A stretch of DNA of 64,000 bases from a virus (IMGVR_UViG_3300036851_000550:7076-71075), one strand, 5' to 3'; positions 21,991-63,903 are shown, counted from the first letter of the stretch. A program made the numbers and translations. Notes: generated from the letters alone by a model not told the origin.

Positions 21991-22479
21991 GTGGTGCCCT
22001 ACCCGGACAGGGAGGACGACGGCCAGGACAAGAACAAGTCGGAGGAAGAGCTCGACGCGGAAGCCCTGACGATCCTTCACAAGATCAAGCGTGGGGAGAG
22101 TCGTCGGGACGTGGCGCTCACTCTCGGTATATCCCAGGCGACCCTGGTTCGGCGCCTCCAGAGGGCGATCTTGAACCCAGTCCCGAAGTCAGTTCAGCGG
22201 GAGATCGAGGCCGAGCGGCTCGATGATCTAACTCTCCGTGTTCATGAGGCTCTGGAAGCCGGAGTCGCCACGACCGCGGACCTGGCTCTCCTTCTTCGGG
22301 AGGCTCGGGCTCTCTCGGCCGCACGAACCAAGCTCCGGGGACTCGCCGAGGTCACATCCTCGAACGACCCGGACGAGGACGACCTGAACGGTCTTCCCGC
22401 CGGCCTGAAGGCAGCAGCCGAGGAGGCCGAGCGGCGCATCGCCGAGGAGGGGAGGCGGCTCCGTGGTGAGGCTTCGTGA
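21991..22479 (+). CDS. Terminase small subunit-like HTH protein (second copy)
   Basis: N-term HTH SRRDVALTLGISQATLVRRL, E.ERLD.L and RTKLRGL patterns of actinophage TerS; directly upstream of TerL-like gene; AGGAGG SD. Confidence 0.65.
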   Translation: MVPYPDREDDGQDKNKSEEELDAEALTILHKIKRGESRRDVALTLGISQATLVRRLQRAILNPVPKSVQREIEAERLDDLTLRVHEALEAGVATTADLALLLREARALSAARTKLRGLAEVTSSNDPDEDDLNGLPAGLKAAAEEAERRIAEEGRRLRGEAS

Positions 22480-22519
22480 GCTGTGGGACACCGCGCGGGC
22501 GGTGAGTAGGAGGGACGAC

Positions 22520-24067
22520 GTGGCTGCACCGGCTGGCGAGTACGTGCCGTCGATCTACGCCCCGGAGACCTTCGGCCTGGACGATTACCTGGCCCGGCTG
22601 AACAATCCGCTGCTCGATCATGCGCACTACCGGCGCCTCTACTGCCAGTACGACCCGCTGCTCTTCGCGCTGATCTACCTCGAGCGGCACCTGATCAGCG
22701 ACGAGACCGGTGGCAAGGACATCCACCTGTCCCAGCTCCACCTCGACATGGCCGAGCACGCGAAGGCGATGGTCCGCAACGACTGCGGCCCGGCCGAGGA
22801 GCGCCATGTTTTCGTCGCCGCGCGCGACTCCGGCAAGTCGACGTGGGCCTGCCAGCCGATCATCGTGCTCTGGGCGATGGCCTTCAGGCACAAGGAAGTG
22901 ATCGCCTGCTTCACCGCGAACGACACCGCCGCGGGGAAGCTGATGGACTGCGTGCGCACCGAGCTGTCGGAGAACCAGCGCCTGCGCCACGACTTCCCGG
23001 AGCTCTGCCGGCCGGCGAAGAACAGCGCGAACCGCACCCGGGCCGACACCCAGAACATGTACATCGCGGCGTCCGGCGTGACGCTGATGGCCTACGGGAT
23101 CGACTCGAACCAGCTCGGTACGAAGATCGAGAACAAGCGGCCGAAGCTCATCATCTTCGAGGACGTGGAGCCCGACGAGGGCAACTACTCGGACGGGCAG
23201 AAGGCCGCGCGGCTCTCCACGATCCGGCAGGCGATCCTCCCGATGAACGATCGAGCGGTCGTCTGGTGGGTCGGCACGACAACGATGTTCGGCTCGGCCG
23301 TGCACGATCTCGTGCGCACGGCGCTCGGGGATCCGGTCGAGTGGGTGGTCGAGGACGACTGGCAGATCCACTACTACCCGCCGATCGTGATGCTCCCGGA
23401 CGGCACCGAGGAGAGCTGCTGGCCGGCGAAGTGGCCGATCAGCTACCTGCAGAAGATCCGCCACCGGCGCACGTTCGCGCTGAACTTCGAGAACAACCCG
23501 CGCTCGGTGGAGAACGGGCTGTGGACCCCGACCGACATCGTGGTCGTGCCGGACGCCCCGATGGGGGATCAGGTGCTGGCCATCGACCCCGGGGTCACCA
23601 GCCGGCAGACCTCCGACCCGACCGGCATGGCCGTCATCACCTGGGGCGCCCGCCTGGTGGTCGAGTACGCCGAGGAGCTGCGGCTGCAGCCCGACCAGCT
23701 GAAGGACATCACGCTGCGGCTGCTGCACGAGAACCCGCGGCTGAAAACGATCCTGATCGAGACGAACAACGGCGGCGAGGCCTGGTCCGACATCATCTGG
23801 GCCGCGCTCCCGCCCGGTGTCGAGCTGATCGACGTGTGGCACTCCAAGAACAAGAACGGCCGGTTCGAGCGGCTGCTCGACTTCTACCAGGAGCGCAAGG
23901 TCGTGCACGCCGCGGTGCACACAACGCTCGTCCGGCAGATGCTGATGTACCCCAAGGTGAAGAACGACGACGTGATCGACAGCGTCGCGATCGGCGTCGA
24001 GCACCAGCTCGAACACCTCTGGGGGAAGCGGTCCCGGCGCACGATCCAGCGTCGGCGGACGAAGTGA
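22520..24067 (+). CDS. terL: Terminase large subunit, second unrelated copy with no adjacent portal
   Basis: DPLLFALIYL, Walker A AARDSGKST, RPKLIIFEDVE, WVGTT; RNase H-like nuclease motifs LAIDPG..SD, LIETNNGG, NDDVIDSV. Confidence 0.82.
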   Translation: MAAPAGEYVPSIYAPETFGLDDYLARLNNPLLDHAHYRRLYCQYDPLLFALIYLERHLISDETGGKDIHLSQLHLDMAEHAKAMVRNDCGPAEERHVFVAARDSGKSTWACQPIIVLWAMAFRHKEVIACFTANDTAAGKLMDCVRTELSENQRLRHDFPELCRPAKNSANRTRADTQNMYIAASGVTLMAYGIDSNQLGTKIENKRPKLIIFEDVEPDEGNYSDGQKAARLSTIRQAILPMNDRAVVWWVGTTTMFGSAVHDLVRTALGDPVEWVVEDDWQIHYYPPIVMLPDGTEESCWPAKWPISYLQKIRHRRTFALNFENNPRSVENGLWTPTDIVVVPDAPMGDQVLAIDPGVTSRQTSDPTGMAVITWGARLVVEYAEELRLQPDQLKDITLRLLHENPRLKTILIETNNGGEAWSDIIWAALPPGVELIDVWHSKNKNGRFERLLDFYQERKVVHAAVHTTLVRQMLMYPKVKNDDVIDSVAIGVEHQLEHLWGKRSRRTIQRRRTK

Positions 24068-24158
24068 AGGGCCGCACCGGGCACGGCGCGACCCTTCACG
24101 GGGCGACCGGTGAGGGGACACCGGTCTGGTCTGGTGCTCGCTCGGAAGCGGCCAGGCG

Positions 24159-24368
24159 TTACTTCGTCAGCTGGGTGATGCGGCCCTTCGTCACGCCGAG
24201 CATGGCCGCGACCTCCGTCTTGCTGTGGGTTTCGAGCAGTTCGGACACCGCCTCCCTGATGACCCTGGCGACATCCGAGATGTCCTGGTTCAGCTCGCCG
24301 TGGACGGCGCGAGCCCGCTCGATCCGCTCTGCCGGGTCGGCGATCGCCCGCAGCTCGTCGGTGTTCAT
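24159..24368 (-). CDS. Small HTH regulator (leaderless)
   Basis: SKTEVAAMLGVTKGRITQL HTH; TATACT 6 nt before ATG. Confidence 0.75.
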   Translation of the reverse strand: MNTDELRAIADPAERIERARAVHGELNQDISDVARVIREAVSELLETHSKTEVAAMLGVTKGRITQLTK

Positions 24369-24441
24369 GTCCCGAGTATACCCCGCATTGAGCAGGGCAA
24401 AAGGGTTGCGGCGGCAGGTGTACCCCGCCTATACTCAGAGC
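24369..24441. promoter_or_regulatory. Back-to-back leaderless promoters with repeated operator-like sites
   Basis: TATACT on each strand (24375-24380 minus, 24430-24435 plus), each 6 nt from an ATG; TTGCGG 18 nt before the plus -10; direct repeat GTRTACCCCGC x2. Confidence 0.7.
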
Positions 24442-24834
24442 ATGGAAGCAGCGAAGGCCCAGCTCATCGCCGAGATCGGCCCCGTGGTCAACCCGATGGG
24501 CGAGCCCACGATCGAGGTCATCCCGACCCTCATCGTCGGCCCGGTCGGCGACTTCTGCGGCGCCTGCTGGGAGACCGACGCGTGCACCGTGGTGCTCCGC
24601 TGGGTCGCGCCGATCGACGGTGTGGAGCGCGAGTTCGCCGTCACGCTGCACCGCGGCTGCGCGGCCGAGTACATCCGGCGCAGCGCGCTCTACGTGCCCG
24701 AGCTGGTCGTCGAGCTCGGTCTGTACCAGGGCGTCGACGTCGACGTCGACACCGACGAGCACCGCCTGAACGACCCGAGCTACGACCAGGACGAGTTCGT
24801 CGCCATGTACCCGCCGTGCGAGCAGGAGGACTGA
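24442..24834 (+). CDS. Hypothetical protein
   Basis: CGAC..HRGC; leaderless start. Confidence 0.6.
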   Translation: MEAAKAQLIAEIGPVVNPMGEPTIEVIPTLIVGPVGDFCGACWETDACTVVLRWVAPIDGVEREFAVTLHRGCAAEYIRRSALYVPELVVELGLYQGVDVDVDTDEHRLNDPSYDQDEFVAMYPPCEQED

Positions 24835-24839
24835 TCGAG

Positions 24840-25103
24840 ATGCGTATGTGGCTGCTGACCGTGGGCGAGTACGCGGACGAGATGGCGCTCGGTGTGGTGC
24901 GCGCGAGCGACATCGCCGAGGCGCGCCGGGTCGCGGGCGAGATGACGATCAACCGCGTCAGCCGTGGCGAGTCGGACGACATGTGCTACGTCTCCGTGAC
25001 CGAGGTCGAGGACCTGACGCCGCAGGACGAGCAGCACGAGAGCGCGGCGGACTTCGCGGAGTTCCGCGAGCAGCACTACGTCGAGACCGGCGAGGAGCTG
25101 TGA
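24840..25103 (+). CDS. Hypothetical protein
   Basis: AGGAGG SD; GC3-rich. Confidence 0.55.
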   Translation: MRMWLLTVGEYADEMALGVVRASDIAEARRVAGEMTINRVSRGESDDMCYVSVTEVEDLTPQDEQHESAADFAEFREQHYVETGEEL

Positions 25104-25282
25104 TGGTCGGCGGCCGGATCTCGAAGAACGACCTGGAGATGCTGGCCACCGACCTCTCCGAGGCGATCGAGCAGGCCCGCGAGGAGTACGCCCCGGACCT
25201 GCCGGACGTCGGCCCGCTGGAAGTGCTCGCGGCGCTGCCGGAGTTCCTGGCCGCGCTGACCGCCCAAGCTGAGGGGAGTTGA
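25103..25282 (+). CDS. Hypothetical protein
   Basis: TGATG overlap; GAGGAG SD. Confidence 0.55.
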   Translation: MVGGRISKNDLEMLATDLSEAIEQAREEYAPDLPDVGPLEVLAALPEFLAALTAQAEGS

Positions 25283-25284
25283 TC

Positions 25285-25779
25285 ATGAGCGAGCAGACCA
25301 CGATCGCGCGGAAGTGTCCGACCTGCCCCACCGTGCAGACGGTGGTCGTCGACGCCGCGGCTCACGAGCGCTGGCAGGCCGGCGAGTACATCCAGAACGC
25401 GTTCCCGCTGCTGACCGCCAACCAGCGCGAGATCCTCATGACCGGCATCTGCCCGAAATGCTGGGACGCGATGCGCGAGGCGACCGACCCGGACGCCGAT
25501 GCCGAGTGCAGCGGCGTGTGCCTCACCGGTGCCGACGTCGGTGTGCCGTTCGACGGCATCGCCTACGCGCACCCGGACTGCCCGCTGCACGGCGAGAGCG
25601 ATGGCGACATCGAGGTGGCGCCCGGCGAGCACCCCGAGTACGACAACGCCGCCGCGGCCTCCGAGCGCGCCGCCGAGGAGTCCGCCTACGACGCGTGGGC
25701 GATGCAGGACTACGACCGTGACCAGATGGCCAGCATGTACGACGGCCTGGGGCCCGAGGACGTGGAGGAGCAGCGATGA
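25285..25779 (+). CDS. Zn-binding hypothetical protein
   Basis: CPTC..WQAGEYIQNAFPLLTANQREILMTGICPKCWD; C..C..HPDCPLH. Confidence 0.65.
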   Translation: MSEQTTIARKCPTCPTVQTVVVDAAAHERWQAGEYIQNAFPLLTANQREILMTGICPKCWDAMREATDPDADAECSGVCLTGADVGVPFDGIAYAHPDCPLHGESDGDIEVAPGEHPEYDNAAAASERAAEESAYDAWAMQDYDRDQMASMYDGLGPEDVEEQR

Positions 25780-26054
25780 TCGAAACGCTCGCCTGCACCG
25801 CGCTGATCATCGCGATCACGACCTACACGATCATGAACTGGGAAGAGGTCATCGAGCGCGCTGTGCAGCAGCACGCCGTCGAGGTCGCGCACACCGTCGA
25901 CCTCTGGTGCGAGGTGTTCGACCTCGTGATGGTGCTGGCCAACCGGTACCAGCAGTGGTTGGAGAAGGTCGGCGGTCTCCCGGTCGAGCAGACCGACCGC
26001 ACCGCGGCCGTCGTCATGAAGCTGCGCCGCCGGCTCGTGGACGTGACCCGATGA
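25776..26054 (+). CDS. Hypothetical membrane protein
   Basis: N-terminal hydrophobic segment; ATGA overlap. Confidence 0.55.
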   Translation: MIETLACTALIIAITTYTIMNWEEVIERAVQQHAVEVAHTVDLWCEVFDLVMVLANRYQQWLEKVGGLPVEQTDRTAAVVMKLRRRLVDVTR

Positions 26055-26269
26055 CGGGAGAGCTGCTGGTCGCCGGGCTGATCGTCGTGGCGGTGGGCTA
26101 CGCCATCGTCAGCCTGCTGCGGCTCGCACGGTTCAGCTGGAAGCGCAAGACCCGGAAGTTCTGCCGGGTCCGTCTCACGCACGCGGGCCCGCGGATCGTC
26201 TCCCTGTACGTCGACCTGTGGCTGTGGAAGGCCCAGATCCTGCCCCGGAAGAGGAAGGCACGCCGATGA
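26051..26269 (+). CDS. Small membrane protein
   Basis: TM followed by basic tail. Confidence 0.55.
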   Translation: MTGELLVAGLIVVAVGYAIVSLLRLARFSWKRKTRKFCRVRLTHAGPRIVSLYVDLWLWKAQILPRKRKARR

Positions 26270-26607
26270 CGATCAAGGACATGGGTCCGAGGCTGCGGGA
26301 GGTACTCGCCGCCGGGCGCGCCGCAGAGGCCCAGCACGGGCAGGTCGCGCCGCCGTCACGGCCGGAGCCTCCGGCGCCGTACGTCCCCGGTGTCGCCCGA
26401 CCGGCCCCCGAGGCCGCCGCCATCGCCGACGCGGAGGACGCCGCCGCGCAGGCCCGCCTCTACATCGAGCACGCCCCGGCGGGTGCAGGCGGGGTGGCGC
26501 AGGCGAAGGCCACACTCGCCGTAGCGGCCAGCATCGACGCCCTCCGTGAGGCGCTCACGGATCGCCTGGACCTGATCGCCGACCAGATCTCCGAGTTGAA
26601 GGACTGA
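26266..26607 (+). CDS. Hypothetical protein
   Basis: ATGA overlap. Confidence 0.55.
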   Translation: MTIKDMGPRLREVLAAGRAAEAQHGQVAPPSRPEPPAPYVPGVARPAPEAAAIADAEDAAAQARLYIEHAPAGAGGVAQAKATLAVAASIDALREALTDRLDLIADQISELKD

Positions 26608-26608
26608 A

Positions 26609-26911
26609 ATGATCTCTGCGAACACCGCTCCCGCCCCTGCCCCCACGACCGCTTGGAAGCGCTGCACGTGGTGGTGCGGCGACGACGAGTGCCCGGCGGC
26701 CTGCCCGAACCAGTTCGCCCCCGCGGCCGTCGTCGACGCTGCTCCCATCCCCGCTGCGGCTCCCCAGTGTCCGAGCTGCGACGAGCCGATCCGCGACGTC
26801 GCCGGCTACGTCCGGCTGCTCGCCTACCTGGCCGCCATCGCCGACGGGGCCATGACGGCCCACCAGGCCGCAGCCCTGCTGCTCGGCGAGCCTCCGGACG
26901 CAGCCGCATGA
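26609..26911 (+). CDS. Cys-rich hypothetical protein
   Basis: CTWWC..C..C, CPSC. Confidence 0.55.
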   Translation: MISANTAPAPAPTTAWKRCTWWCGDDECPAACPNQFAPAAVVDAAPIPAAAPQCPSCDEPIRDVAGYVRLLAYLAAIADGAMTAHQAAALLLGEPPDAAA

Positions 26912-27132
26912 CACCGCGGGAGCGCAAGGACCAGGCGCTGGAAGAGGTCACCTCACAGCTGGAGGAGCCCGACCGCTGGGCCGTCTCGCTGATGTACGAG
27001 AGCGTGCCGGTCGCGGTCTACCCGAACCTGTCGGAGGCCGCTGCTATGGGTAAGGCCGCCGAGCTCCGCATGCGCTACCCGACCCACGACGTGCAGCGGT
27101 ACCGGCGCACGGTGATCTGGGAGGCAGCGTGA
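26908..27132 (+). CDS. Hypothetical protein
   Basis: ATGA overlap. Confidence 0.55.
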   Translation: MTPRERKDQALEEVTSQLEEPDRWAVSLMYESVPVAVYPNLSEAAAMGKAAELRMRYPTHDVQRYRRTVIWEAA

Positions 27133-27446
27133 TCCAGCGCGAGACGATCGAGGACGCGCTCGAGAACGACCGCTGCGGCATCTGCCACTCAGTCGATCAC
27201 TTCCGCGAGGACTGCCCGCTGTTCACCCAGGGGGACCTGGTCGGCGTCGCCCGGGACCAGAACGGCGTGGACACCGCGACCTGCGAATGCGGCTTCGTCG
27301 AGCTGATCACGGGGGACGGGAACTACCTGTTCGTCCCGACCGGGCTCTACCGCTTCGACGTCGACGCCGAGCACTCGATGGTGTCGCAGGTCCACCAGTA
27401 CCGGTACATCTGCCCGGACTGCTGGGCGAAGCTGCCGGAGGAGTAG
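27129..27446 (+). CDS. Zn-knuckle-containing hypothetical protein
   Basis: CGICHSVDHFREDCP (CCHC), CEC, CPDC. Confidence 0.6.
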   Translation: MIQRETIEDALENDRCGICHSVDHFREDCPLFTQGDLVGVARDQNGVDTATCECGFVELITGDGNYLFVPTGLYRFDVDAEHSMVSQVHQYRYICPDCWAKLPEE

Positions 27447-27449
27447 GAC

Positions 27450-27800
27450 ATGCCTGCAGGAGCTGCGGTCTTCTTCATCATCACGGTGGTGGCCGGCGCG
27501 GTCATCGCGCTGAAGGCGCTGGCCGCGGCGTTCCGGGCGTTCTGGGCCGGCGTGGTCGAGATCGCAACGCACGTGGCCACCGTCATCGGCGTGGTGATCT
27601 GCGTGCTCGGCGGGTTGGCCACGCTGGTCGCCCTGCTCTACGTGGCCGGCACGTTCGCCGAGCGGCTGTACCGGCTGCGCCTGGGCGCGCGGCACCAGCG
27701 CGACCAGCTCGCGATGGAGTGGGACCAGATGATCATGAAGAACGACTCGCCGGCCAGCATCGGTTGGGACGGCCCATTCCCGGAGGACTTCGATGGCTGA
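27450..27800 (+). CDS. Membrane protein
   Basis: Two hydrophobic helices. Confidence 0.55.
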   Translation: MPAGAAVFFIITVVAGAVIALKALAAAFRAFWAGVVEIATHVATVIGVVICVLGGLATLVALLYVAGTFAERLYRLRLGARHQRDQLAMEWDQMIMKNDSPASIGWDGPFPEDFDG

Positions 27801-28128
27801 CGAGTACTACCTGGTTCGGCGCGACGACACGGACGGGTCAGTGATCGAGCTGACGCCGCTGCCGGCAGACACGATCATCGGACCAGTGCCGCACGACCTG
27901 CGCGTGCGCGCGAACGCCGACCCGACGCTGCGGGCGATCCGGTTCGGCACCGACGACGAGGCCCGCGAGGCCTACGACCTGTTGATCAACACGGTGGCCA
28001 CGTTGACCACCGAGAACAGCAAGCTGCGGCCGATGGAGCAGCGGGCCCGGTTCGCCGCCGTCAACCCGCTGTCCTCGGAGGTCGAGCGCGCCACCGGGCT
28101 GGCGATCCTGGGGAGGCCGTCAGCATGA
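27793..28128 (+). CDS. Hypothetical protein
   Basis: GGAGG SD; overlap. Confidence 0.55.
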   Translation: MADEYYLVRRDDTDGSVIELTPLPADTIIGPVPHDLRVRANADPTLRAIRFGTDDEAREAYDLLINTVATLTTENSKLRPMEQRARFAAVNPLSSEVERATGLAILGRPSA

Positions 28129-28478
28129 GCGAGCTGATGTTCGTGCGGCTGCACGAAATCAACGACTGGGAGGGCGAGTCCTGGAGCTGGTGGTTGCAGC
28201 TGACCGGGAACGAAGCGGAGATCAACAAGCTCGAGGAGATCCTCGACGTCTGGGCCCCAGACTGGTCCCCCGACGACCCGCCGTTCTTGCTGCACCGCAG
28301 CGACGTCGAGCCGGAGGTCGTTGTCGACAAGCTGGTGCAGTACGCCGCGGTGAACTACTACCCCCTGCACAACAAGATCACCGGTGTACTCACCTGCCCC
28401 GACGACCTGGGCGTGAACCCTGAGCTGCTCTACAAGGGCGCGATCAGGACCTGCTTCCGGAGGCCGTCCGATGGCTGA
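28125..28478 (+). CDS. Phage hypothetical protein
   Basis: [16 protein letters not shown]...LYKG pattern. Confidence 0.6.
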
Positions 28479-28788
28479 GTCCCTGCACGTCACGCACATC
28501 GGCCGCTCGTGGGACGGCACCTCGCTGGAGGACGAGTGCCCGTGCCCGAAGGCGCCGTGCGGCCTGGTCAGCTCGGACGCCGTCGACCCGGCGTGCGATC
28601 AGCACCCGTCGGAGCGCCGCAAGACCATGCGGCAGATCCACACCGCAGCGGTCTGCCCCGGCCCGCGGGCCATCGTCCGCTACCAGGTCGACGCCCGCTG
28701 GTTCTTCGACGACCGCGAGAAGGCACGCCGGTTCGCCGAGGCGCTGCTGCTGATGGGGGCCGACTCGGCGACGGCGGGGCGGCTATGA
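28471..28788 (+). CDS. Cys/His hypothetical protein
   Basis: [19 protein letters not shown]. Confidence 0.6.
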
Positions 28789-29090
28789 GCTGTCTCGACT
28801 ACGAGGTGGAGGCGGTGCTGGCCGCATGGGCTGCGCTGAAGGCCCGCAAGTCCCCCCGCCCTGTCGACGGCCGCCCGGTCGGCGCCGAGCTGCGGGCCGC
28901 GCTCGTCCTGCTGGAGGACAAGTGGGAGATGACGTCCGGGCACCGCGCGCTGGAGCGACTGGCCGCCGCGGCGGTCGAGCTGCGCGACGCCGCGTCGTCG
29001 CAGGACTCCGCGCGCGTCACCCGGGCGTACACGGAGTTCATCACGACCCTGGAGGCGATCGACGCCATCGACGCCTGGCAGCGGACATGA
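28785..29090 (+). CDS. Hypothetical protein
   Basis: ATGA overlap. Confidence 0.5.
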
Positions 29091-29266
29091 CGTACGAGGG
29101 CGGCTGGGCATGGGTCTGCGAGTCCTGCGAGGTCGGCGGTGTATCCGCCGATCGGCCGCCGGTGTGCTGGTGCTGCGGCGCGCCGGCCACCCCCGTGACC
29201 GCCCGGACGGCGGTCGACCAGCTCCGGCAGTCGATCGCCGGATACGAGGTGGTGCGGCCGTGGTGA
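29087..29266 (+). CDS. Small Zn-ribbon protein
   Basis: CESC..CWCC. Confidence 0.5.
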   Translation: MTYEGGWAWVCESCEVGGVSADRPPVCWCCGAPATPVTARTAVDQLRQSIAGYEVVRPW

Positions 29267-29430
29267 CGACGTGGTTCCGGTGGTTCTTCCTGTGCTGGGC
29301 GGTGTGGATCGCGCTGGTCAGCTGGTACTACGGGCTGGTCCCGACCGAGGGCATGGGGCTGTTCGCGCTCGTCCTCATCATCGTTTTCCTGAAGATCGCC
29401 CAGACGAGAGCGGGGCCACGTCATGGCTGA
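29263..29430 (+). CDS. Small membrane protein
   Basis: Two hydrophobic segments. Confidence 0.5.
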   Translation: MTTWFRWFFLCWAVWIALVSWYYGLVPTEGMGLFALVLIIVFLKIAQTRAGPRHG

Positions 29431-29695
29431 GACCACCTGCTCGCGGGGCTGCACCTGCACCCGGTGCCAGCGCAACCGCACCGCCTTCGCCCAGGTGATG
29501 GCCGAGCGAGCGGAGGCGAACTCTCAGCTGGCCGCGGCGCTGAACACCTGGCGCTGGTGTTGGGACTGTGCCGCCACGAAGCAGACCTGCGACGAGGCCC
29601 GGATGGAGGACCCGCCGCGGAAGTGCTGCCCGGACTGCCGACACCGGAACGCCAAGGACGCCCGGGTCAACTGGCTGACCACGGAGGACGGATGA
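29423..29695 (+). CDS. Cys-rich hypothetical protein
   Basis: CSRGCTCTRC, CWDC, CCPDCRH. Confidence 0.55.
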   Translation: MAETTCSRGCTCTRCQRNRTAFAQVMAERAEANSQLAAALNTWRWCWDCAATKQTCDEARMEDPPRKCCPDCRHRNAKDARVNWLTTEDG

Positions 29696-29856
29696 CCCTG
29701 CGCGAGTGCGACGAGACCTTCTTCTGGTTCCTCACCCTGCTGACCGACGAGGGCGAGCTGAACCTGTGGCCGTGCCGGAAGTGCGGGGCGATGGTGCACG
29801 GCGGGCTGCGTGGCCGACACCGGAAGTTCCACGAGGAGCTGGAGGAGAAGAGCTGA
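29692..29856 (+). CDS. Small C2H2-like protein
   Basis: CRKCGAMV..H.KFH. Confidence 0.5.
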   Translation: MTLRECDETFFWFLTLLTDEGELNLWPCRKCGAMVHGGLRGRHRKFHEELEEKS

Positions 29857-29858
29857 TC

Positions 29859-30275
29859 ATGGGACAGACGATCGACTACCTGGTGACCATCGAGACCGTC
29901 TCGTGCTGCAGCTGCGGCGTGCTGTTCGGGATGCCGGAGCAGATGCTGCGGGCTCGGCGCGATGACGGGCAGGAGTTCTTCTGCCCGTCCGGCCACCGGC
30001 AGCACTTCACCGAGACCGAGGCGGCCCGGTTGCGGAAGAAGCTCGAGAGCACCGAGCGCAGCCTGAAGTACGTCCAGACCTCCCGGGACGCCGCACGCGA
30101 CCAGCTGCAGGCGGCCGAGCGATCGCGTCGGGCGCTGAAGGGCGTGGTCACCCGGCAGCGCAACCGCGTAGCCGCGGGGGTGTGCCCGGTCGACAACTGC
30201 CGCCGCCACTTCAACGACCTCGGCCGGCACATGACCACCGAGCATCCGGACTACGCGCACGAGGAGTCGACGTGA
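29859..30275 (+). CDS. Zn-binding coiled-coil phage protein
   Basis: CCSCGVLFGMP..FFCPSGH, coiled coil, GVCP..C.RHF.DL.RHM..H. Confidence 0.65.
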   Translation: MGQTIDYLVTIETVSCCSCGVLFGMPEQMLRARRDDGQEFFCPSGHRQHFTETEAARLRKKLESTERSLKYVQTSRDAARDQLQAAERSRRALKGVVTRQRNRVAAGVCPVDNCRRHFNDLGRHMTTEHPDYAHEEST

Positions 30276-30826
30276 CCGAGAACTGCGGCCAGGGCCACGA
30301 CACCACGAAGATCGGATGTAAGCACGCTGCCGCTGCGCGCGAGCTGGAGCAGCTGCGCGCGCAGATCTCCGAGATCGTCGAGAAGCTGCTGCTCACCCCG
30401 GATAGGCCGCTCATGCCCTGGCCGGAGCTGCCGCAGGACCTGGCGCTGATCTGCGTCCAGCTGGACGGCTACGACGCCATGGTGAAGGCGCTGGGCAACG
30501 AGCTCGACCGGATGCGCAACAGCCACCGTGCGGTGACGGCCGGTCTGTTCCGCGAGCTGTCGAAGCTGCGCAATGAGGTGGCCACCGACCCGCACGACGA
30601 CGCTCGCGACTACCGCACGCTCGCCGACGAGGTGATCAAGTGGTTCAACCCGGCGGACGACGACGTCGCCGAGGTGGCCATCCACATGGACGCCGTGAAG
30701 GCGGCGGCCCGGTACATCGAATCGCTGGCCTGCCGGTGCACGCCGGAGGCCGTCCACTACGACGACGAGCCGTGCGCACGCTGCGCCGCGCTCGGTCGCG
30801 TCGCCGACCGGCCCGAGGAGCGCTGA
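30272..30826 (+). CDS. Hypothetical protein
   Basis: GTGA overlap; CRC..CARC. Confidence 0.55.
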   Translation: MTENCGQGHDTTKIGCKHAAAARELEQLRAQISEIVEKLLLTPDRPLMPWPELPQDLALICVQLDGYDAMVKALGNELDRMRNSHRAVTAGLFRELSKLRNEVATDPHDDARDYRTLADEVIKWFNPADDDVAEVAIHMDAVKAAARYIESLACRCTPEAVHYDDEPCARCAALGRVADRPEER

Positions 30827-30987
30827 TGCTGATCCTCGGCTTCCTGTTCGCGGGAATGACGATGGTGGCCTGCCTGGTCACCGTGGCGATGCGGGGCGCG
30901 ATGGGCCCGGACGAGCTGTTGGCCTGGGTCATCGTGGCCGCGGTGTTCCCGGTCAGCGGCGCGCTGGCCGGACGAGGGAGGGACTGA
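30826..30987 (+). CDS. Small membrane protein
   Basis: Two hydrophobic segments. Confidence 0.5.
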   Translation: MLILGFLFAGMTMVACLVTVAMRGAMGPDELLAWVIVAAVFPVSGALAGRGRD

Positions 30988-31127
30988 TGGAAGCACTGTT
31001 CGGATTCGACTGGTGGGACGTCGGCATCGTCGTGCTCGTCCTCCTCGGCCTGCTGGCATTCGTGACCAGCGTCGAGAAGGGCAAGCGCCGCAGCGAGCAG
31101 AAGCGTTGGGAGAGGCACAACCGGTGA
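30987..31127 (+). CDS. Small membrane protein (46 aa, not in ORF track)
   Basis: MEALFGFDWWDVGIVVLVLLGLLAFV...; TGATG overlap. Confidence 0.5.
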   Translation: MEALFGFDWWDVGIVVLVLLGLLAFVTSVEKGKRRSEQKRWERHNR

Positions 31128-31447
31128 CGGAGATGATCGGGGTCGGACAGTACGTCGACGGCGGGCCCCACGAGACCGACTGGGTCAAGAGAATGCGCGG
31201 CCTGCTCGCGAAGCGCGTGGTCGTCACCCTGAACGACGACGCATCGGTCCAGCTCCGCGGCGTGCTGATCGCCTTCACCGACCAGGGCGAGGTCTGCCTC
31301 ATGGAGCCGTGGACCGGCGAGACCACCTGGGGCTGGCCGTGCCTGCACGTCGCCGAGCTCCCGCCGCAGTGCGCAGTGTTCGCGATGCCGCGGCCGGCGC
31401 AGGTCGTGGTGTCGCGAGAGCTGCTCGACGACCGGAGGGACAGATGA
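31124..31447 (+). CDS. Hypothetical protein
   Basis: GTGA overlap; beta-rich LLAKRVVVTL..LRGVLIAF..GEV. Confidence 0.55.
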   Translation: MTEMIGVGQYVDGGPHETDWVKRMRGLLAKRVVVTLNDDASVQLRGVLIAFTDQGEVCLMEPWTGETTWGWPCLHVAELPPQCAVFAMPRPAQVVVSRELLDDRRDR

Positions 31448-31848: not shown

Positions 31849-31850
31849 CC

Positions 31851-31997
31851 GTGGATCTCGACTGGAACGATGAGGACCTCTGGGACAAGGTCGACGAGGG
31901 CTTTGGCGTCCGGGACCTGGAGCCCGCGTTGCGGGCTTTCCTCGCGTACCTGATTTCTATCGGATGGACTCCCCCGATGAAGGAGAGCGGGTCATGA
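31851..31997 (+). CDS. Small hypothetical protein
   Basis: AGGAG SD; ends GWTPP. Confidence 0.45.
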   Translation: MDLDWNDEDLWDKVDEGFGVRDLEPALRAFLAYLISIGWTPPMKESGS

Positions 31998-32891: not shown

Positions 32892-32904
32892 TACCCTAGT
32901 TATC

Positions 32905-33408: not shown

Positions 33409-33429
33409 GAAGATCAACTAAGGAGTCAC

Positions 33430-36045: not shown

Positions 36046-36047
36046 GA

Positions 36048-54678: not shown

Positions 54679-55950
54679 TCAGGTGAGCACCAGGGCCTTG
54701 ACGGCTGCGGCGTCGTCCGGCACGGCGTCGAGACGCATGAAGCCGAAGAAGCCGACCTGCAGCATCTCCGCGTAGCGCTCGGCCAGGCGGACCATCTGCA
54801 CGTCGAGCGCCTGGCGGACCAGGTAGCCCGCGCGGAAGTCGCCGAACAGGATCGGCCGGTTCGTCGCGATGTACGGAGTCGACGGCATGGCCTGGTCGAT
54901 CTGGTACGGCTGGCCGTTGACCGTTGCGGGCATGCCCGCGACCGGAACCGGCAGCCACAGCGGGCGGTTCTGGGAGTCCTTGACCTTCCGCAGCACCGCC
55001 AGCGTCCTGTCGCTGAACAGGTACCGGACGTTGCCCATCTGGCGATACGCCGGGTCGACCGAGTGCTCGAGGTCGATGATGGCGTTGTAGATGAGCGCGT
55101 GGTCAGCGGCGGTGTTGCCGTTCCACGCCGCGGCGGTGAGGACCGCGGACGACGGGGTGGCAGTCGGCAGGATGCCGAACGGCTCGGTGGTACCGGTGCC
55201 GTTCACCAGGTCGTCGGCGACGGCCCGGCCGATGCGCTCACCGAGCTTGCGCGGCAGCCAGTTGTCCAGGTTGAACGCCGAGTCCTGCAGCAGCTGCAGC
55301 GACACCCGGACCAGCTTCGAGGTGTACATGAACGCCCCGACGGTCTTGGTCCCGAACGTCGCACCCAGCTCGACGATCGCGGTGTTCTCGTTCAGGATCG
55401 CGCCGACGTTGCCGGTGTCGTCGTTGGTCGGCCACTGCAGCGGGTTGCCCGTGCTGGTGGTGACCACGTTGGCGTGGTTGATCAGGCCGCCGTAGGCCTT
55501 CAGCGTCTCCGTCATCACCGCCCGGTAGCCCGGGGGCACCAGGAACCCACCGTCGGCCGGGATGCCGACACCCTGCGGCGAGGCCCGGTGCTCGGCCATG
55601 ACCGTGCGCTGCTCGGTGGTCAGAGCACCCATACCACCGCGGAGGAAGGCACCGAAGGTCTCCTCGTGGCGTGCAGCGCGCTCCTCGTCGGTGGCCTCGG
55701 GGGCCTCCGGCTCACCGGTGCCCTGGCCCTGAATGACCTGGCGGTAGTCGATCTTGTCGAGCTTCGCGTTCTTCTCGAGGCGCTCGATGTCGGCGGAGAC
55801 CACGTCGATGTCGGCGTTGGCCGCATCCCAGTTGGTCCGCTCCTCGGCGGTCCAGTCGCGGTTCTCCTCCTCGGCCGCGGCCAGGATGTCCTGCATCCGG
55901 TTGTGCAGGCGGTTCTGCTTGTCGATGAGCCGCTTCAGCTGCTCGGACAT
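54679..55950 (-). CDS. Major capsid protein (HK97 fold with delta domain)
   Basis: Coiled-coil N-term, GGFLVP, SKLVRVSLQLLQDS, NGTGT.EP.GI, LRKVKDSQNRPLW, ILFGDF. Confidence 0.92.
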   Translation of the reverse strand: MSEQLKRLIDKQNRLHNRMQDILAAAEEENRDWTAEERTNWDAANADIDVVSADIERLEKNAKLDKIDYRQVIQGQGTGEPEAPEATDEERAARHEETFGAFLRGGMGALTTEQRTVMAEHRASPQGVGIPADGGFLVPPGYRAVMTETLKAYGGLINHANVVTTSTGNPLQWPTNDDTGNVGAILNENTAIVELGATFGTKTVGAFMYTSKLVRVSLQLLQDSAFNLDNWLPRKLGERIGRAVADDLVNGTGTTEPFGILPTATPSSAVLTAAAWNGNTAADHALIYNAIIDLEHSVDPAYRQMGNVRYLFSDRTLAVLRKVKDSQNRPLWLPVPVAGMPATVNGQPYQIDQAMPSTPYIATNRPILFGDFRAGYLVRQALDVQMVRLAERYAEMLQVGFFGFMRLDAVPDDAAAVKALVLT

Positions 55951-56041
55951 GAGTCCACGTGTCCTTTCTGCGGGCACGCCGGACACCCCCAGCTGCTCGC
56001 CCTGTAGGCGAGCGGGAGGGGGTGTGGGTGGTTCGGGTGGG

Positions 56042-56971
56042 TTAGGCGGCGGGACGGCGGAGCTGAGCCCTCAGGGCCCGCAGCCGTGCCTTCGCCAGGT
56101 CGTGCTCCGACGGGCGGTTCCGAGTGGACTCAGCCGGCTCGGGGGTGTCGTCGGTTCCTTCCTCGGTACGAGTGGTCTCAGCCGGCTCGTCCGAGTGGGT
56201 CTCTGTGGGGTCGGCCGGCGAGTCGCCGGCCTCGGTGGTCACCGCGGTGGTCGTGCCGATCGTGATGCGCTCCTGGCCGTCCACCTCGGACACCTCCAGG
56301 TCGGCGCGCTCGGCGGGTAGCTGCTCCAGGAGCTTCCGCAGCTCCGGCTTGTGCTCGGCGCGGCTCAGGATCGCGGCGCGGTCGCCGCGGGCCAGCAGGG
56401 CGGCCTCGACGTGGCGCAGGCCAGCGTCGGTCGTCGGGTAGGCGGGGAACGTGACGGCGCTGACCTCGATCAACCTGACCTCCAGGATGCGGCGGATCTC
56501 GACCTCGGCGCTGTTGCCGTCGGAGGTCTCGACGGTCTCCGTGCTCCAGTCGTCCTTCGTGACGTAGAAGCCGAAGGACATCCCGGTGATGTTCTTGATC
56601 CGGATGTTGACCTTGAGGTCTCGCACGTAGGACAGCTCGTCGTCGAGCGCGGAGTCGACCTGCAGGCCGACCGCGTCCTGAGCGAGCAGCAGCGTGCCGG
56701 CGGACACCCGGGAGACCACGTAGTAGCTGTCGTGGTCGATCAAAAACCGGGCGTCGCCCTCACTGATCGTCTTGGTGAAGGCGCCCGCCGCGACTTCCTC
56801 GTAGAAACCCCAGCGCAGCGGGTTGCCGATCGCGGTGCGGGTGTCGAACACCGCGGCGTGCCCGTAGAAGCGCGGCTTCTTCTTGGCGGCGTCCTCGGCG
56901 TCGAAGCGCAGCTCTGCGTGCGCGTCGGCCAGCGACAGGCTCCGCAGCTCGGGGATGAGGGCGTTGCCCAT
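56042..56971 (-). CDS. HK97-family prohead protease
   Basis: FYGHAAVF, FLIDHD, GMSFGF, EVSAVTFPAY. Confidence 0.9.
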   Translation of the reverse strand: MGNALIPELRSLSLADAHAELRFDAEDAAKKKPRFYGHAAVFDTRTAIGNPLRWGFYEEVAAGAFTKTISEGDARFLIDHDSYYVVSRVSAGTLLLAQDAVGLQVDSALDDELSYVRDLKVNIRIKNITGMSFGFYVTKDDWSTETVETSDGNSAEVEIRRILEVRLIEVSAVTFPAYPTTDAGLRHVEAALLARGDRAAILSRAEHKPELRKLLEQLPAERADLEVSEVDGQERITIGTTTAVTTEAGDSPADPTETHSDEPAETTRTEEGTDDTPEPAESTRNRPSEHDLAKARLRALRAQLRRPAA

Positions 56972-60021: not shown

Positions 60022-61404
60022 CTACTCGTTCACGATGCCGTCGCCGTCCCCGTCCTTGGGGCCGGTCTTCTTGGGTGCGGGCTTCTTCTTCGGCCCGTCG
60101 CTGCCGCCGCCCCCGACGACGCCGCCGGCCGGCTTGCTGCCGCCGTTGCCCTTCGGAGTGCTGCCGGTGATCGGGTCGGGCGGGATGTAGCCGAGCGGCA
60201 CGAAGTTGGCCGGCTGCAGGAACAGGTCGCCCACCGGGTCCTCGTTGCCCTCCGAGTCCTGGATCGGCGGCAGGTCCTCGAGCGCCCTGATGTCGTTGCT
60301 GTTCAGCACGCCGAGCTCGCGCAGCGTCCGGTAGAACTCGGAGCGCGCCGTGGTGTCGCCGCGGAGCAGGCCCTCCAGCTTGTACTTGGCGTAGTGCCCG
60401 CTCGGGAGCAGCTCCTTGGTGATCCGGGCCTCGAGCGGAGCCATCCACTGCGGGTGCAGGTCGAAGACGACGAACCCGGTCGCCTGCGCCTCCAGCCCGG
60501 TGCCCCACGACGTCGACTTCTCCGTCTGGAACATCAGGTACGGGGGGATGCCGAAGTACCGCGCGAGCTCCGTGATCTGGAAGTCCCGGGACTCCAGCAT
60601 CTGCGCGTCGTCGGCCGGCATCGTGAGGCTCTGGAACTCCGCGCCGCTGTCGAGCACGGCCACCGAGTGCGCTCGGTCGGCGCCGGTCATCTTGGACTGC
60701 CACCGGGACTGCAGCGTCTCCGCGGCCTCCTGGGTCAGCCGCTGCTCGGTCTGCAGGATGCCGGACAGCATGTTGCCGCTGCCGAACAGCTTCGCGGCGG
60801 CCTTCTCCGCGGCCAGGCCGGTGCCCACGGCCTGCGCGGCGGCCCGGATCGGCGACACACCGCAGATGCCGTCGTAGCCCAGGCCGGGCACATGGAAGAC
60901 CTCGTGCGGCGTCAGGTCGTGCTTGACGCCGTCCTCGTCCGTGTAGCAGAAGACCTTGCCGGTGGGGTTCAGCTCAGTGATCTTTTCGGAGCGGACCTTG
61001 CCGCACTGCATCCGCCACGGCGCCAGCGGGTAGAGCCACCGGACGCGCCGGCCCTCGTCCCGGATCTTCTGGAAGTAGCTGTTGCCCCAGAGGCAGCGGT
61101 GGACCTGGGAGAGCTTCCACAGCTCGTAGGTGGTCATGTCCGGGTGCGGGTTCTGCAGGAGCAGGTTGGTCACCGGCTCCTTGGACTCGCGGTTGTAGAC
61201 ATGGATCGGCAACGCGCCGGCCAGCCCGCCGAGCAGCGACGTGCCGCGCCAGACGGCCGACATGGCCAGCGAGCCCACCTCGGTGACGTTCACGCCCGCA
61301 TCGGTCGGCAGGCCGCCCAGGACCTCCAGCAGGCTGGTGCTCGTCAGCGGGTAGCTGGGGTTCTCGAGCGACCGCGCGCCGAAGAGGTCGAACAGGGACC
61401 TCAC
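60022..61404 (-). CDS. Portal protein (HK97 family)
   Basis: MSAVWRG..L.GALP, LWGNSY, EVFHVPGLGYDG..GVSPI, DAQMLESR, LARYFGIPP, LLRGD. Confidence 0.92.
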   Translation of the reverse strand: MRSLFDLFGARSLENPSYPLTSTSLLEVLGGLPTDAGVNVTEVGSLAMSAVWRGTSLLGGLAGALPIHVYNRESKEPVTNLLLQNPHPDMTTYELWKLSQVHRCLWGNSYFQKIRDEGRRVRWLYPLAPWRMQCGKVRSEKITELNPTGKVFCYTDEDGVKHDLTPHEVFHVPGLGYDGICGVSPIRAAAQAVGTGLAAEKAAAKLFGSGNMLSGILQTEQRLTQEAAETLQSRWQSKMTGADRAHSVAVLDSGAEFQSLTMPADDAQMLESRDFQITELARYFGIPPYLMFQTEKSTSWGTGLEAQATGFVVFDLHPQWMAPLEARITKELLPSGHYAKYKLEGLLRGDTTARSEFYRTLRELGVLNSNDIRALEDLPPIQDSEGNEDPVGDLFLQPANFVPLGYIPPDPITGSTPKGNGGSKPAGGVVGGGGSDGPKKKPAPKKTGPKDGDGDGIVNE

Positions 61405-61817: not shown

Positions 61818-63410
61818 TCACCACAGGTTCGGCGCGCCCATCAGGAGCGCGCCGTGCTCGATGGCCCACCCACGGGCCTCCAGGGCGAGCAGCCCCGCCT
61901 GGAAGGCGCTGATGGGCGCCCTGCCCTTACGGACCACACGGCGGTAGTTCTCCGGCTGACCGGGCAGCCGCTCCTCCGCCGAGCTCCGCTTCCGGCCGTT
62001 GGCCAGCGCCGCGGCGAGCGCATGCGCGGTAAGCGTCTCGTCGCCGTCGTGGGTGAACTCGTCTTCGCCGTAGTGCGCGGTCTCGAAGCGCTCGACGATC
62101 TGGTCCATCCGCATCTCGCTGTTGAGCCAGATCTCGAGGACGCGCTTCGGGTACTCCCCGGCCCAGACGTTGACCTCGGTCTGCCAGGTGTGCGGGGAGC
62201 ACATCATCGTGGCGACGTCGTAGGTCTCGAAGGCCAGCTTCACCGTGGCGTGCACCTCGGGCCGCGGGATCTGCCAGTCCGCGTCGCCGAGGTGCGCGGG
62301 CCGCTCCCACGTCCGGATGTGGAAGAGCCGACCGTCCCGCAGCCGGCACGCGACCAGCGACGTCGCCTCCCGGGTCTGGCTGCCGAGGAAGCCCAGGCCG
62401 ATCTGCTCGAACTTGTCGAGCGTCTCGCCCGGCCGGGCCTGGTTCGCCCAGAGCAGCGGGTCCACCGCGGCCTTGCTGCCGACCGTGATCTCGTTCAGGA
62501 AGAAGCGCCGCGCCTCGTTCTCGCCGGTCGAGGCGTCCTTGGCCTCTTCCAGGATCCGGTCGATGTTGACCCAGCCGCCCGCTTCGGCCGCCGAGTCGCC
62601 GTAGACGTAGACGAGCTCGGCGCGCAGCGCGGCCTCGTCGTCCATGTCGATGTGCGCCCGCGGCGGGCGGTAGTCGATGTAGACGCCGGGGGCCTTCGCC
62701 TCGAACGTCCGCTGCGCCGTGGACTGCTCCGCGGGGTCCCAAGCGTTCGTCAGCTCCATCCACCGGCCGTCCATGCCGGCCAGGCCGCGCTTCATGGTCT
62801 TGGCCAGGGACACGCCGCCGCTGGCGTCGGTGTACAGCCCGGACTCCGTGAAGGTGGCGTAGGTGATCCGGGCGCCGAGGCGGGAGCGGGCCTGCGCGGT
62901 CACGGGCTCGATCCGGCCGCCGCCGGGCAGGTTGACGCGGGACAGCCCCACGTCGAGCCCGGGGAGATCGGCGAGGGGCCCCTCGGTGAGCATCGCGAAG
63001 ATCGGGTCGTAGGTGTTCGCGACCTGGTCCTCTGCGTTCGCCGCACACTGGATCCACGGCGTCGGCATCGGCATCCCGACCGGCTCCCCGTCGGCGTCCC
63101 AGCCGGCGAAGCGCACCGGGCCGAGCGCCTGCGCGCAGCACTGCGCCGCGCCGAGCGGGTCCTTCCCCGACTTCTGCGCGCGGACCAGGAGCGAGCCGTA
63201 GTAGCTGAAGGCCTGGCTGCCCATGTCCGGGCGGGCCGTCGGTCGGAGCCGATACGTCCAGATCAGGTGCTTCCACTGTTCGTCGGTCAACTTCCACGAC
63301 AGACCACGTGCCGCGCGATCCGGGACGATCAGGTTGGCTTCCATCCAGTCCCCGACGAGATAACCGAGGGTGGGGAACTCTCCCTTGTACTCGGGGCCCC
63401 GCCAGGGCAC
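61818..63410 (-). CDS. terL: Terminase large subunit (head module); nuclease domain apparently inactivated
   Basis: PTLG..V.DW.E, LTDEQ, Walker A RAQKSGKDP, PWIQCAA..EDQ, TNAWDP, EARRFFLN; position between terS and portal; nuclease Asp positions read GFLGS, CSP, PISA. Confidence 0.88.
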   Translation of the reverse strand: MPWRGPEYKGEFPTLGYLVGDWMEANLIVPDRAARGLSWKLTDEQWKHLIWTYRLRPTARPDMGSQAFSYYGSLLVRAQKSGKDPLGAAQCCAQALGPVRFAGWDADGEPVGMPMPTPWIQCAANAEDQVANTYDPIFAMLTEGPLADLPGLDVGLSRVNLPGGGRIEPVTAQARSRLGARITYATFTESGLYTDASGGVSLAKTMKRGLAGMDGRWMELTNAWDPAEQSTAQRTFEAKAPGVYIDYRPPRAHIDMDDEAALRAELVYVYGDSAAEAGGWVNIDRILEEAKDASTGENEARRFFLNEITVGSKAAVDPLLWANQARPGETLDKFEQIGLGFLGSQTREATSLVACRLRDGRLFHIRTWERPAHLGDADWQIPRPEVHATVKLAFETYDVATMMCSPHTWQTEVNVWAGEYPKRVLEIWLNSEMRMDQIVERFETAHYGEDEFTHDGDETLTAHALAAALANGRKRSSAEERLPGQPENYRRVVRKGRAPISAFQAGLLALEARGWAIEHGALLMGAPNLW

Positions 63411-63414
63411 TTGA

Positions 63415-63903
63415 TCAGTCCTCGGCGGAGGGGTCAGCCACCCGCAGCCGGGGCTTCTTCGCCACGGGGGCGTCCTCGCCGATCTCCGGCTCCGCGATCT
63501 CCCAGCGCAGGCGGAGCAGGGCGAGCGGGGACAGGCCGAGCCGGTCCTCGAGCTGGCGCACCTCGGAGTGGAGATGGGCGGTCGCCACGGTCAGCGCGCG
63601 CTTCCGCTCGCGGTCCTCGGCGTCGTCATCGTCGTCGTAGCCGCCCTCGACCATGATCGCGCAGCGAACGTAACGGGCGACGATCAGGTCGATATGCATT
63701 CGCACCCAGGCCTTCGCCATGGGTGTTTTCCAGAGCCTTTCCCAGCGCTCCAATTCCCGATCGGTGCAACCGTGGAGGGGCCAGTCGGGCACGGGGCCGT
63801 CGTAGCCCTCCATCGGAAGCTGGAGGGTATCCGGGGCCAGGTTGCGCCGGCGCCTCTTCGACGGGTCCGTGGGCGGCGGGCCACTGTTCAGGACGGCTCC
63901 CAT
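63415..63903 (-). CDS. terS: Terminase small subunit
   Basis: GPPP..RRRRN, PDWPL, W..LWKTP.A..W, EVRQLEDRLGLSP..L.RLRWEI; GAGGAGG SD. Confidence 0.85.
   Translation of the reverse strand: MGAVLNSGPPPTDPSKRRRRNLAPDTLQLPMEGYDGPVPDWPLHGCTDRELERWERLWKTPMAKAWVRMHIDLIVARYVRCAIMVEGGYDDDDDAEDRERKRALTVATAHLHSEVRQLEDRLGLSPLALLRLRWEIAEPEIGEDAPVAKKPRLRVADPSAED

Follow-up and report, generated by a model that had tools for sequence, protein, structure and literature searches.

In the textbook phage terminase, the same protein cuts the DNA concatemer and pumps it into the head, and how the enzyme switches between these two modes is a long-standing question. The DNA considered here, a stretch of 64,000 nucleotides hereafter called the window, comprises bases 7076–71075 of a 71,075-bp linear virus record in IMG/VR (IMGVR_UViG_3300036851_000550, or G000), and its last base is the last base of the contig. 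It encodes two large terminases: TerL1, next to the portal gene and a small terminase candidate (TerS1), and TerL2, preceded by a small terminase candidate of its own (TerS2). The aspartates of the nuclease active site are gone from TerL1. The explanation that fits best, with a probability of roughly one half, has four parts: (i) TerL1 would be a pure motor, (ii) the cos site would be cut in trans, (iii) a conserved HNH endonuclease would be the cos nuclease, and (iv) TerL2 would be an accessory.

The packaging module resembles that of HK97-type cos phages (HK97 gp1, gp2 and gp74; the Staphylococcus and lactococcal cos phages) in the gene order TerS, TerL, portal, protease and HK97-fold capsid. 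The fold of TerL1 is closest to that of HK97 TerL, a genome end lies about 50 nt upstream of terS, and a zinc-ribbon HNH endonuclease is associated across the genome ends. In contrast with HK97, all three nuclease aspartates of the large terminase are gone clade-wide, its Walker motifs read GKD and TE instead of GKT and DE, the HNH gene is found 2–7.5 kb from terS1 rather than adjacent to it, and a second complete terminase is encoded elsewhere in the genome. A motor with a retained C-terminal RNase H-like domain that lacks catalytic residues is also seen in the phi29 packaging ATPase. However, phi29 packages protein-primed, unit-length genomes with neither TerS nor a cut, while TerS1, apparently fixed cos-type ends and junctions in relatives characterise the system described here. 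The hallmarks of phi29-like packaging are protein-primed replication, absence of TerS and a pRNA: the window has TerS1 and a Pol I-type polymerase, no terminal-protein gene was recognised in it, and the pRNA was not searched for.

TerL2 has its likeness in the T7-type/Terminase_6 terminases of Streptomyces phages and of the satellites MiniFlayer and Mulchroom, with 35–38% identity, the same ATPase and nuclease motifs and a small helix-turn-helix (HTH) protein encoded ahead of it. Those enzymes are the sole terminase of their genome and are followed by a portal gene, whereas TerL2 is an orphan and belongs to a separate clade. Some Gordonia phages have a split large terminase, with adjacent genes annotated as ATPase and nuclease, and so also carry the two activities on different polypeptides. 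Unlike this in-place split, TerL1 is full length with a dead domain, and the other nuclease is either an unrelated HNH protein or a whole terminase 39 kb away. A literature search, with most subscription journals outside its reach, found neither a cos phage with a nuclease-dead TerL nor a clade of orphan second terminases; it turned up only vestigial nucleases of the phi29 type and split genes described in genome notes. No member of the isolated-phage collection is more than 60% identical to either terminase.

TerL1, a terminase without its nuclease triad

The catalytic centre of HK97 TerL is given as D302, D388 and D471 in the available part of PMC9410871, and these positions were verified on gp2 of NC_002167. 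Their equivalents in TerL1 are L342 (MAFFT alignment with HK97 gp2), S405 (hhalign against gp2, probability 86%) and S501 (alignment with gp2), so that the RNase H fold of the nuclease family is present without any of its three catalytic aspartates. The original prediction, made from the sequence of the window, had noticed the loss of two aspartates from the portal-linked terminase; it was right, and the third is gone as well. In an AlphaFold model of TerL1 (pLDDT 87), L342 and S405 end the strands 336–342 and 398–405 and S501 starts the helix 501–518, which in the model places all three residues at the spots where the RNase H fold positions its carboxylates. The best match of the model in the PDB, by Foldseek, is HK97 TerL (6z6d, E 8.9e-21).

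The ATPase side is retained. Residues K83 and E189, the Walker A lysine and catalytic Walker B glutamate of an ASCE ATPase, are invariant, although the earlier statement that the ATPase motifs are kept is true of the residues and not of canonical motifs: Walker A is GKD and Walker B is TE, an atypical pair that is a trait of the whole family. Across 80 loci of the family (L006–L085) the two motifs co-vary, with GKD and hhhhTE together in 71, GK[GS] and hhhhDE in eight, and GKD with G-E in L038. Compared with GKT/DE in HK97, the GKD/TE pair looks like a compensated swap of an aspartate and a hydroxyl residue around the Mg site. Database matches (phrog_9, phrog_19179) and the neighbouring terS and portal genes agree in making TerL1 a large terminase. 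The TerL1 of the window has no Pfam hit at E ≤ 0.01, PF20441 being recorded for two nuclease-intact relatives, and single-sequence searches of TerL1 and TerL2 against PDB sequences gave nothing usable, so that profiles were required.

The loss of the nuclease is clade-wide and old. In what follows, ‘dead’ denotes a TerL1 without the nuclease aspartates, ‘live’ a nuclease-intact TerL1, and ‘dual’ a record with two terminases. Among 120 listed clusters of the TerL1 family, 72 lack all three aspartates, 48 have the full set and none is intermediate. In the set filtered by length, the 61 dead sequences have H (49), I (3), T, Y and F (2 each) or L, Q and R (1 each) at the first site, S (37), T (20), N (2), F (1) or A (1) at the second, and S (59), A (1) or a gap (1) at the third, while aspartate occupies each of the three sites in 48/48 live sequences. 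Where two sites were scored in IMG/VR loci, 20 of 80 are dead at both, 59 are D/D and one is odd. The dead sequences are monophyletic in the TerL1 tree (support 100). Their mean pairwise identity is 0.70 in the ATPase domain and 0.64 in the nuclease domain, against 0.60 and 0.55 in the live set, values that point to continuing purifying selection on dead TerL1. The conservation of both domains, together with inteins in several members, means that the protein is still needed.

Among the dead homologues, P0103, P0116, P0123–P0126 and P0159 are 869–916 aa long or carry the intein or homing-endonuclease domains PF14528/PF05204. A distant member of the family on a 12.3-kb IMG/VR contig (L084) has a GKS/DE ATPase with N and S at the first two nuclease sites and, judged on those two sites, is possibly a second, independent loss.

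The genome end and the HNH endonuclease

The site at which the DNA would be cut is indicated by the ends of assembled contigs. Read with terS1 forward, the contigs of three records (G000, G003 and G006) start at one and the same distance, exactly 22 nt, ahead of a conserved TACGGGT motif, which in the window occupies 63972–63978 on the minus strand, 22 nt from the right end. These starts lie 46–101 nt upstream of the window-aligned part of terS1, and the probable source run (X1), assembled with another program, yields a contig with the same first base; run X2, which holds just a small share of the stretch, supports no claim here. G000 and G003 are also alike at their left ends, and neither was found to have a terminal direct repeat. 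HK97 terS starts at nt 50 of the HK97 genome. This pattern argues for fixed, non-redundant ends beside terS1 as in HK97, within the limits of contigs, which could hide a collapsed terminal repeat. The cos overhang was not derivable from a comparison of an internal junction in G002 with the ends of G000, G003 and G006. Homologues of TerS1 are encoded upstream of TerL1 in G001–G004, G006 and G051c. The contig of G001 has a 127-bp end overlap and that of G051c is broken inside the head genes; these circular or permuted assemblies show DNA that spans the junction, and cutting is therefore needed.

CheckV puts the completeness of G000 at 71%, yet both its ends resemble physical genome ends, being homologous to those of G003 and confirmed on the right by the second assembler, and the record is probably complete.

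Three HNH genes are present in the window, each in a different PHROG (94–429, phrog_144; 3769–4404, phrog_1271; 32905–33408, phrog_59), and of these the first alone is conserved, in linkage with terS1, throughout the clade. The original prediction took this gene to be terminal; in fact the contig continues 7,075 nt to its left. Residues C6, C9, C18, C59, H78, N94, C99, C102 and N103, which comprise the zinc-ribbon cysteines and the H-N-N catalytic motif, are invariant in 11 aligned sequences. Homologues 45–49% identical are encoded upstream of terS1 in G001, G002, G003, G004 and G051c; in these genomes and in G000 the gene sits 2–7.5 kb upstream of terS1 on the same strand, linked but not immediately adjacent. 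By homologue presence, the HNH is found in five of the six dead-clade records searched (G005 included), in addition to G051c and the window genome, and the sole miss is G006, a fragment of 61% completeness that stops at terS1. G004, the dead-clade genome without TerL2, has the HNH as well. Since 17 of 20 nuclease-intact relatives have it too, the link of the HNH to this module is ancestral and predates the nuclease loss. That the HNH does all the cutting had been raised earlier as an alternative: conservation in every assessable dead-clade genome is in its favour, while action of the HNH on its own is unproven. A tblastn search with the HNH found no match in the isolated-phage collection, and the prediction of a TerL1–HNH complex scored 0.01 (mark 0.32), which was counted neither way.

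The TerS2–TerL2 cassette

TerL2 is a complete large terminase homologue. Its frame has 534 codons, about 19 more at the N terminus than the 515-aa gene call in the database. As first noticed from the sequence, it keeps all its acidic nuclease residues (D375, D385, E433, D503 and D506) and has an atypical Walker B, IIFEDVE where the family consensus is LLDDIE (ED in place of DD), beside a GKST Walker A. With a Walker A, an acidic Walker B and the nuclease carboxylates it has the motifs of T7-like/Terminase_6 enzymes, and PF17289 is recorded for relatives. It is only a distant relative of T7 terminase itself: the NCBIfam equivalog gives 36.6 bits against a cut-off of 150, and a profile match to T7 gp19 has an E value of 0.011. 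A structure model (pLDDT 89) has as its best PDB match the terminase of the T7-like phage PhiV-1 (8dgc_E, E 2.3e-18).

No portal or capsid gene was found in the plus-strand block from 21991 to 33651, nor around TerL2 in G102 and G108. The overlapping upstream gene is the TerS2 candidate, and the earlier claim that TerL2 has its own small terminase is borne out as far as position, an N-terminal HTH and conservation go, these being what the identification rests on; similar ORFs, 35–36% identical, precede TerL2 in G001 and G002. Resemblances of TerS2 to HTH_23 and Sigma70_r4 are a lead only. The hairpin over the TerL2 stop codon is terminator-like and closes the TerS2–TerL2 cassette outside the late operon. 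Apart from it, the surroundings of terS2 and terL2 were searched for repeats and for a second site of cos or pac type, and only short two-copy matches of chance quality came up.

The nuclease residues of TerL2 are kept in 6/6 dead-clade genomes that carry the gene. The P-loop reads AKST in 4/6 of these and in 15/28 other clade-A rows of the same alignment (clade A is defined below), and the nuclease motifs are strict.

Distribution of the two terminases

Sampled from the TerL1 side, TerL2 is found in 5/11 dead-TerL1 IMG/VR records (3/4 of those at least 90% complete) and in 0/20 nuclease-intact relatives (0/7 of the complete ones). A sixth dead-clade genome with TerL2 is G051c, a 69,366-bp contig in a metagenome-assembled genome. 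The co-occurrence of dead TerL1 and TerL2 that followed from the original prediction thus holds in this sampling, in 6/7 informative dead-clade genomes against 0/20 live ones, and the order and orientation of the two terminases are conserved in relatives. The association is real, and it rests essentially on one clade.

The exception is G004 (69,151 bp, CheckV 100%), in which TerL1 is dead and even a tblastn search at E 10 finds no TerL2. Because it is nested among TerL2-bearing genomes in the TerL1 tree, TerL2 has been secondarily lost from it. Its slot for TerS2–TerL2 (L091:4931–8082) holds a plus-strand operon that directly follows an integrase and opens with two small ORFs and a 710-aa FtsK/SpoIIIE-like DNA translocase (phrog_12531, E 3.6e-26). 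Ku-like and Lsr2-like proteins are also encoded. Lifestyle was considered as the cause of the missing TerL2 and rejected, as an integrase and TerL2 occur together in G002.

The picture changes when TerL2 is the starting point of the sampling. Twenty records have TerL2-family genes without any TerL1-type gene. A second scan, of 37 records, found five with a TerL1-type gene; in all five TerL1 keeps D/D/D and TerL2 looks intact. Two genomes, G102 and G108, share the architecture of the window. In the TerL2 family tree, which does not include G051c, two clades are separated with support of 99 on each side. Clade A comprises five dual-dead rows, five dual-live rows and G084, whose main terminase is of another family (phrog_2) and lies next to the portal; clade B comprises 19 complete single-terminase records and the satellites MiniFlayer and Mulchroom. 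The clade-A enzyme is an orphan second terminase in 12/12 genomes that offer enough context, irrespective of the family of the main terminase and of its state (portal adjacency of the main terminase was checked for the window, G102, G108 and G084). As clade A occurs beside nuclease-intact main terminases, five of HK97 type and one of another family, TerL2 is not a specific complement of dead TerL1.

The two enzymes also differ in their history. The TerL2 proteins of G001 and G002 are 91% identical, yet their TerL1s fall in different subclades, that of G002 being nearest to the TerL1 of G051c. This pair excepted, TerL2 is 31–48% identical between genomes, against 59–69% identity of the corresponding TerL1s to that of the window. 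The position of TerL2 varies as well, inside the head module in G084 and beyond the lysis genes elsewhere. In G108, a 73.8-kb relative, a queuine tRNA-ribosyltransferase homologue (L375:14396–15226, minus strand; phrog_1279, E 4.9e-76) is encoded directly downstream of the orphan TerL2, a hint of DNA or tRNA base modification.

Which enzyme cuts the DNA

The proposed division of labour between a motor and a cutter is well supported; TerL2 is a candidate for the cutter, against which stand G004, the live partners of TerL2, the conserved HNH and an end that lies beside terS1 and not terS2. In the preferred reading TerL1 would be purely a translocating motor, with its ATPase and the fold of its nuclease domain conserved, and the DNA would receive a staggered cut in trans, 46 nt upstream of terS1. 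The likeliest cutter is the conserved HNH, which TerS1 and TerL1 would recruit; the HNH-assisted cos cleavage of HK97-like phages would here be taken to its limit. TerL2 may contribute a nick or serve as a back-up but would not be a dedicated partner of dead TerL1. Its presence may nevertheless have made the loss of the TerL1 nuclease tolerable: an ancestor with two nuclease-competent terminases and an HNH could have afforded that loss, a route suggested by the dual-live genomes.

Several points weigh against this reading. The identity of the cutter is inferred from assembled contigs and their sequences. The statements on HK97 gp74 and the staphylococcal HNH come from the available parts of PMC9410871 and PMC12967558; in the former, gp74 is described as stimulating cleavage by TerL, and an HNH as the lone cutter is unproven. 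The HK97 TerL nuclease is itself thought to make the terminating cut at the portal, according to the accessible text of PMC10359639. In the window, 7.5 kb separate the HNH gene from terS1 when measured across the genome ends, and opposite-strand genes intervene, unlike in HK97, where the two are adjacent. TerL2 is spread through the whole depth of the dead clade, including the near-basal G003, and its presence in 6/7 genomes with invariant nuclease residues matches what would be expected of a required cutter. TerL2 is absent from the closest live sisters with complete genomes (G012, G013 and G016), which places the TerL1 nuclease loss and the presence of TerL2 on one and the same stem. Finally, G004 is a metagenomic contig without an end repeat, and its viability and completeness are unproven despite a CheckV value of 100%.

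A tentative alternative, in line with the original prediction, is that TerS2–TerL2 recognises and cuts the concatemer, alone or with the HNH (one strand each), and hands the end to dead TerL1 on the portal. Beyond the skewed distribution seen from the TerL1 side (6/7 against 0/20), TerL2 is the only RNase H-type terminase nuclease left in dead-clade genomes, with its acidic residues all kept; its P-loop is relaxed in many clade-A members while the nuclease motifs are strict; and genomes that pair TerL2 with a live TerL1 provide a redundant ancestral state from which the TerL1 nuclease could have been lost. Against it stands G004, with a dead TerL1, no TerL2 and a nested position. The same TerL2 clade also occurs beside nuclease-intact main terminases in six genomes, so that standing in for a dead nuclease cannot be its primary role. 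The fixed end is next to terS1 instead of terS2, TerL2 has the HTH partner and full ATPase that an autonomous enzyme would have, the disagreement of the TerL1 and TerL2 trees (G001/G002) gives no sign of co-evolving partners, and the cassette is closed by its own hairpin outside the late operon. A broader version is doubtful: that throughout a whole clade of cos-type actinophages a second, autonomous terminase, TerS2–TerL2, matures the concatemer in trans and hands it to a motor-only TerL1. If it were true, the clade-A orphans would be an unrecognised class of trans-acting DNA-maturation enzymes in many actinophages.

It is unlikely, though compatible with cutting by the HNH, that TerS2–TerL2 has no part in packaging this genome and instead cuts or packages other DNA (of rival phages, satellites or the host) or spreads in the manner of a homing nuclease. 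In favour of this, the clade-A enzyme is an orphan in all 12 genomes whose context suffices, alongside main terminases of two or more families; it is variable in position (the head module in G084, beyond the lysis genes in others), faster to diverge than TerL1 (31–48% against 59–69%), discordant with the TerL1 tree and sporadically lost (G004), with a sister clade that includes the terminases of the Streptomyces satellites MiniFlayer and Mulchroom. Yet TerL2 persists across the entire depth of the dead clade, its ATPase and nuclease residues all in place, which implies steady selection, and no target, immunity gene or homing-site signature for it was found. To our knowledge, a selfish or competitive terminase cassette has no described precedent.

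A TerL1 that still cuts through a rebuilt active site is very improbable. The replacement residues are non-random (H in 49/61, S or T in 57/61 and S in 59/61 at the three sites) and the domain is conserved, but the first site is Leu in the window TerL1 and can be Ile, Phe, Tyr, Arg or Gln, the dead clade has no new invariant acidic residue, and RNase H-fold nucleases need carboxylates for two-metal catalysis (available part of PMC10359639), which counts against a rebuilt site. Least credible of all is that no cutting is needed, as with the unit-length genomes of phi29, whose type of motor carries a vestigial nuclease (available part of PMC9410871), or that the two-terminase layout is an assembly chimera: the first idea, also raised by the original prediction, is contradicted by the retention of TerS1 and the HNH, by the junction-spanning circular or permuted assemblies of relatives (G001, G051c) and by replication genes for a Pol I-type polymerase, primase-helicase, exonuclease and RuvC-like resolvase with no terminal-protein system seen, and the second is excluded by the same layout in six independent dead-clade and five live-relative assemblies.

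Significance

An otherwise standard, concatemer-processing motor of HK97 type has lost its nuclease in at least 72 sequence clusters while keeping the domain. This provides a natural separation of functions in which to ask what the nuclease domain does apart from cutting, and it allows a packaging HNH to be tested directly as the only cos nuclease. It also gives reason to examine a widespread, unstudied clade of second terminases. For these phages, calling the packaging type, or ‘the’ terminase, from a single TerL hit is misleading.

Gene layout of the window

Genes were called by third-position G+C, and the proteins of the window were scanned against Pfam and PHROG. With a G+C content of 69%, the window is best read as most of a linear siphophage genome of about 71 kb with fixed, cos-type ends and a soil actinobacterial host. 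From the right end, one minus-strand structural module encodes TerS1, TerL1, portal, protease, capsid, adaptor, tail tube, tape measure, tail proteins, amidase and holin, with a single portal gene and a single capsid gene in the whole window (Table 1).

Table 1. Features of the window, by position from its first nucleotide
Feature	Position	Strand	Matches and remarks
HNH endonuclease, packaging-associated kind	94–429	-	PF01844, E 1.4e-7; phrog_144
Replication block	1000–21800	-	Pol I-type polymerase, primase-helicase, exonuclease, RuvC-like resolvase, two HNH genes
Plus-strand block between replication and structural blocks	21770–33926	+	TerS2, TerL2, then about 20 small ORFs of unknown function and a third HNH
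TerS2 candidate, small protein with HTH and coiled coil	21991–22479	+	Weak HTH_50, phrog_664; overlaps TerL2 start
TerL2, complete T7/T4-like large terminase homologue	22463–24067	+	phrog_38, E 1.3e-52; no portal beside it
Hairpin (inverted repeat I13)	24064–24099	+	16-nt arms, 88% complementary, 4-nt loop; overlaps TerL2 stop codon
Amidase	36048–36914	-	Holin also in module
HK97-fold major capsid protein	54679–55986	-	Phage_capsid, E 5.2e-58
Prohead protease	56042–56971	-	Peptidase_S78, E 1.5e-34
Portal protein	60022–61404	-	Phage_portal PF04860, E 1.1e-83
TerL1, HK97-type large terminase	61818–63410	-	phrog_19179, phrog_9, phrog_21277; next to terS1 and portal
TerS1, small terminase candidate	63415–63954	-	phrog_226, E 3.7e-16; Terminase_7 below cut-off, E 4.9e-5; directly upstream of TerL1
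Right physical genome end (cos-type)	63955–64000		46 nt from terS1 start; contig ends, second assembler

Two composite origins were considered and rejected. The block 21991–33651 is not an integrated MiniFlayer-like satellite, as it has no portal, capsid or scaffold gene and TerL2 falls outside the clade of the satellites; nor is the window a pair of tandem prophages, given its single structural module and the recurrence of the same layout in relatives. No tRNA genes were found in the window, and a near-identity DNA search with positions 20000–40000 had no match in the isolated-phage collection.

Within the structural module, a 1,173-aa ORF (47303–50824, minus strand) has no family match, and the G+C inside it climbs to 80% over 2 kb, especially at 48000–50000. 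The matches to tape measure proteins fall on the adjoining 593-aa ORF (45302–47083), so that the tape measure may be oddly split or fused. Between the tail and lysis genes, the ORF at 37127–37975 on the minus strand contains a sortase domain (PF04203, E 1e-15), an unusual cargo for the structural or lysis region of a phage.

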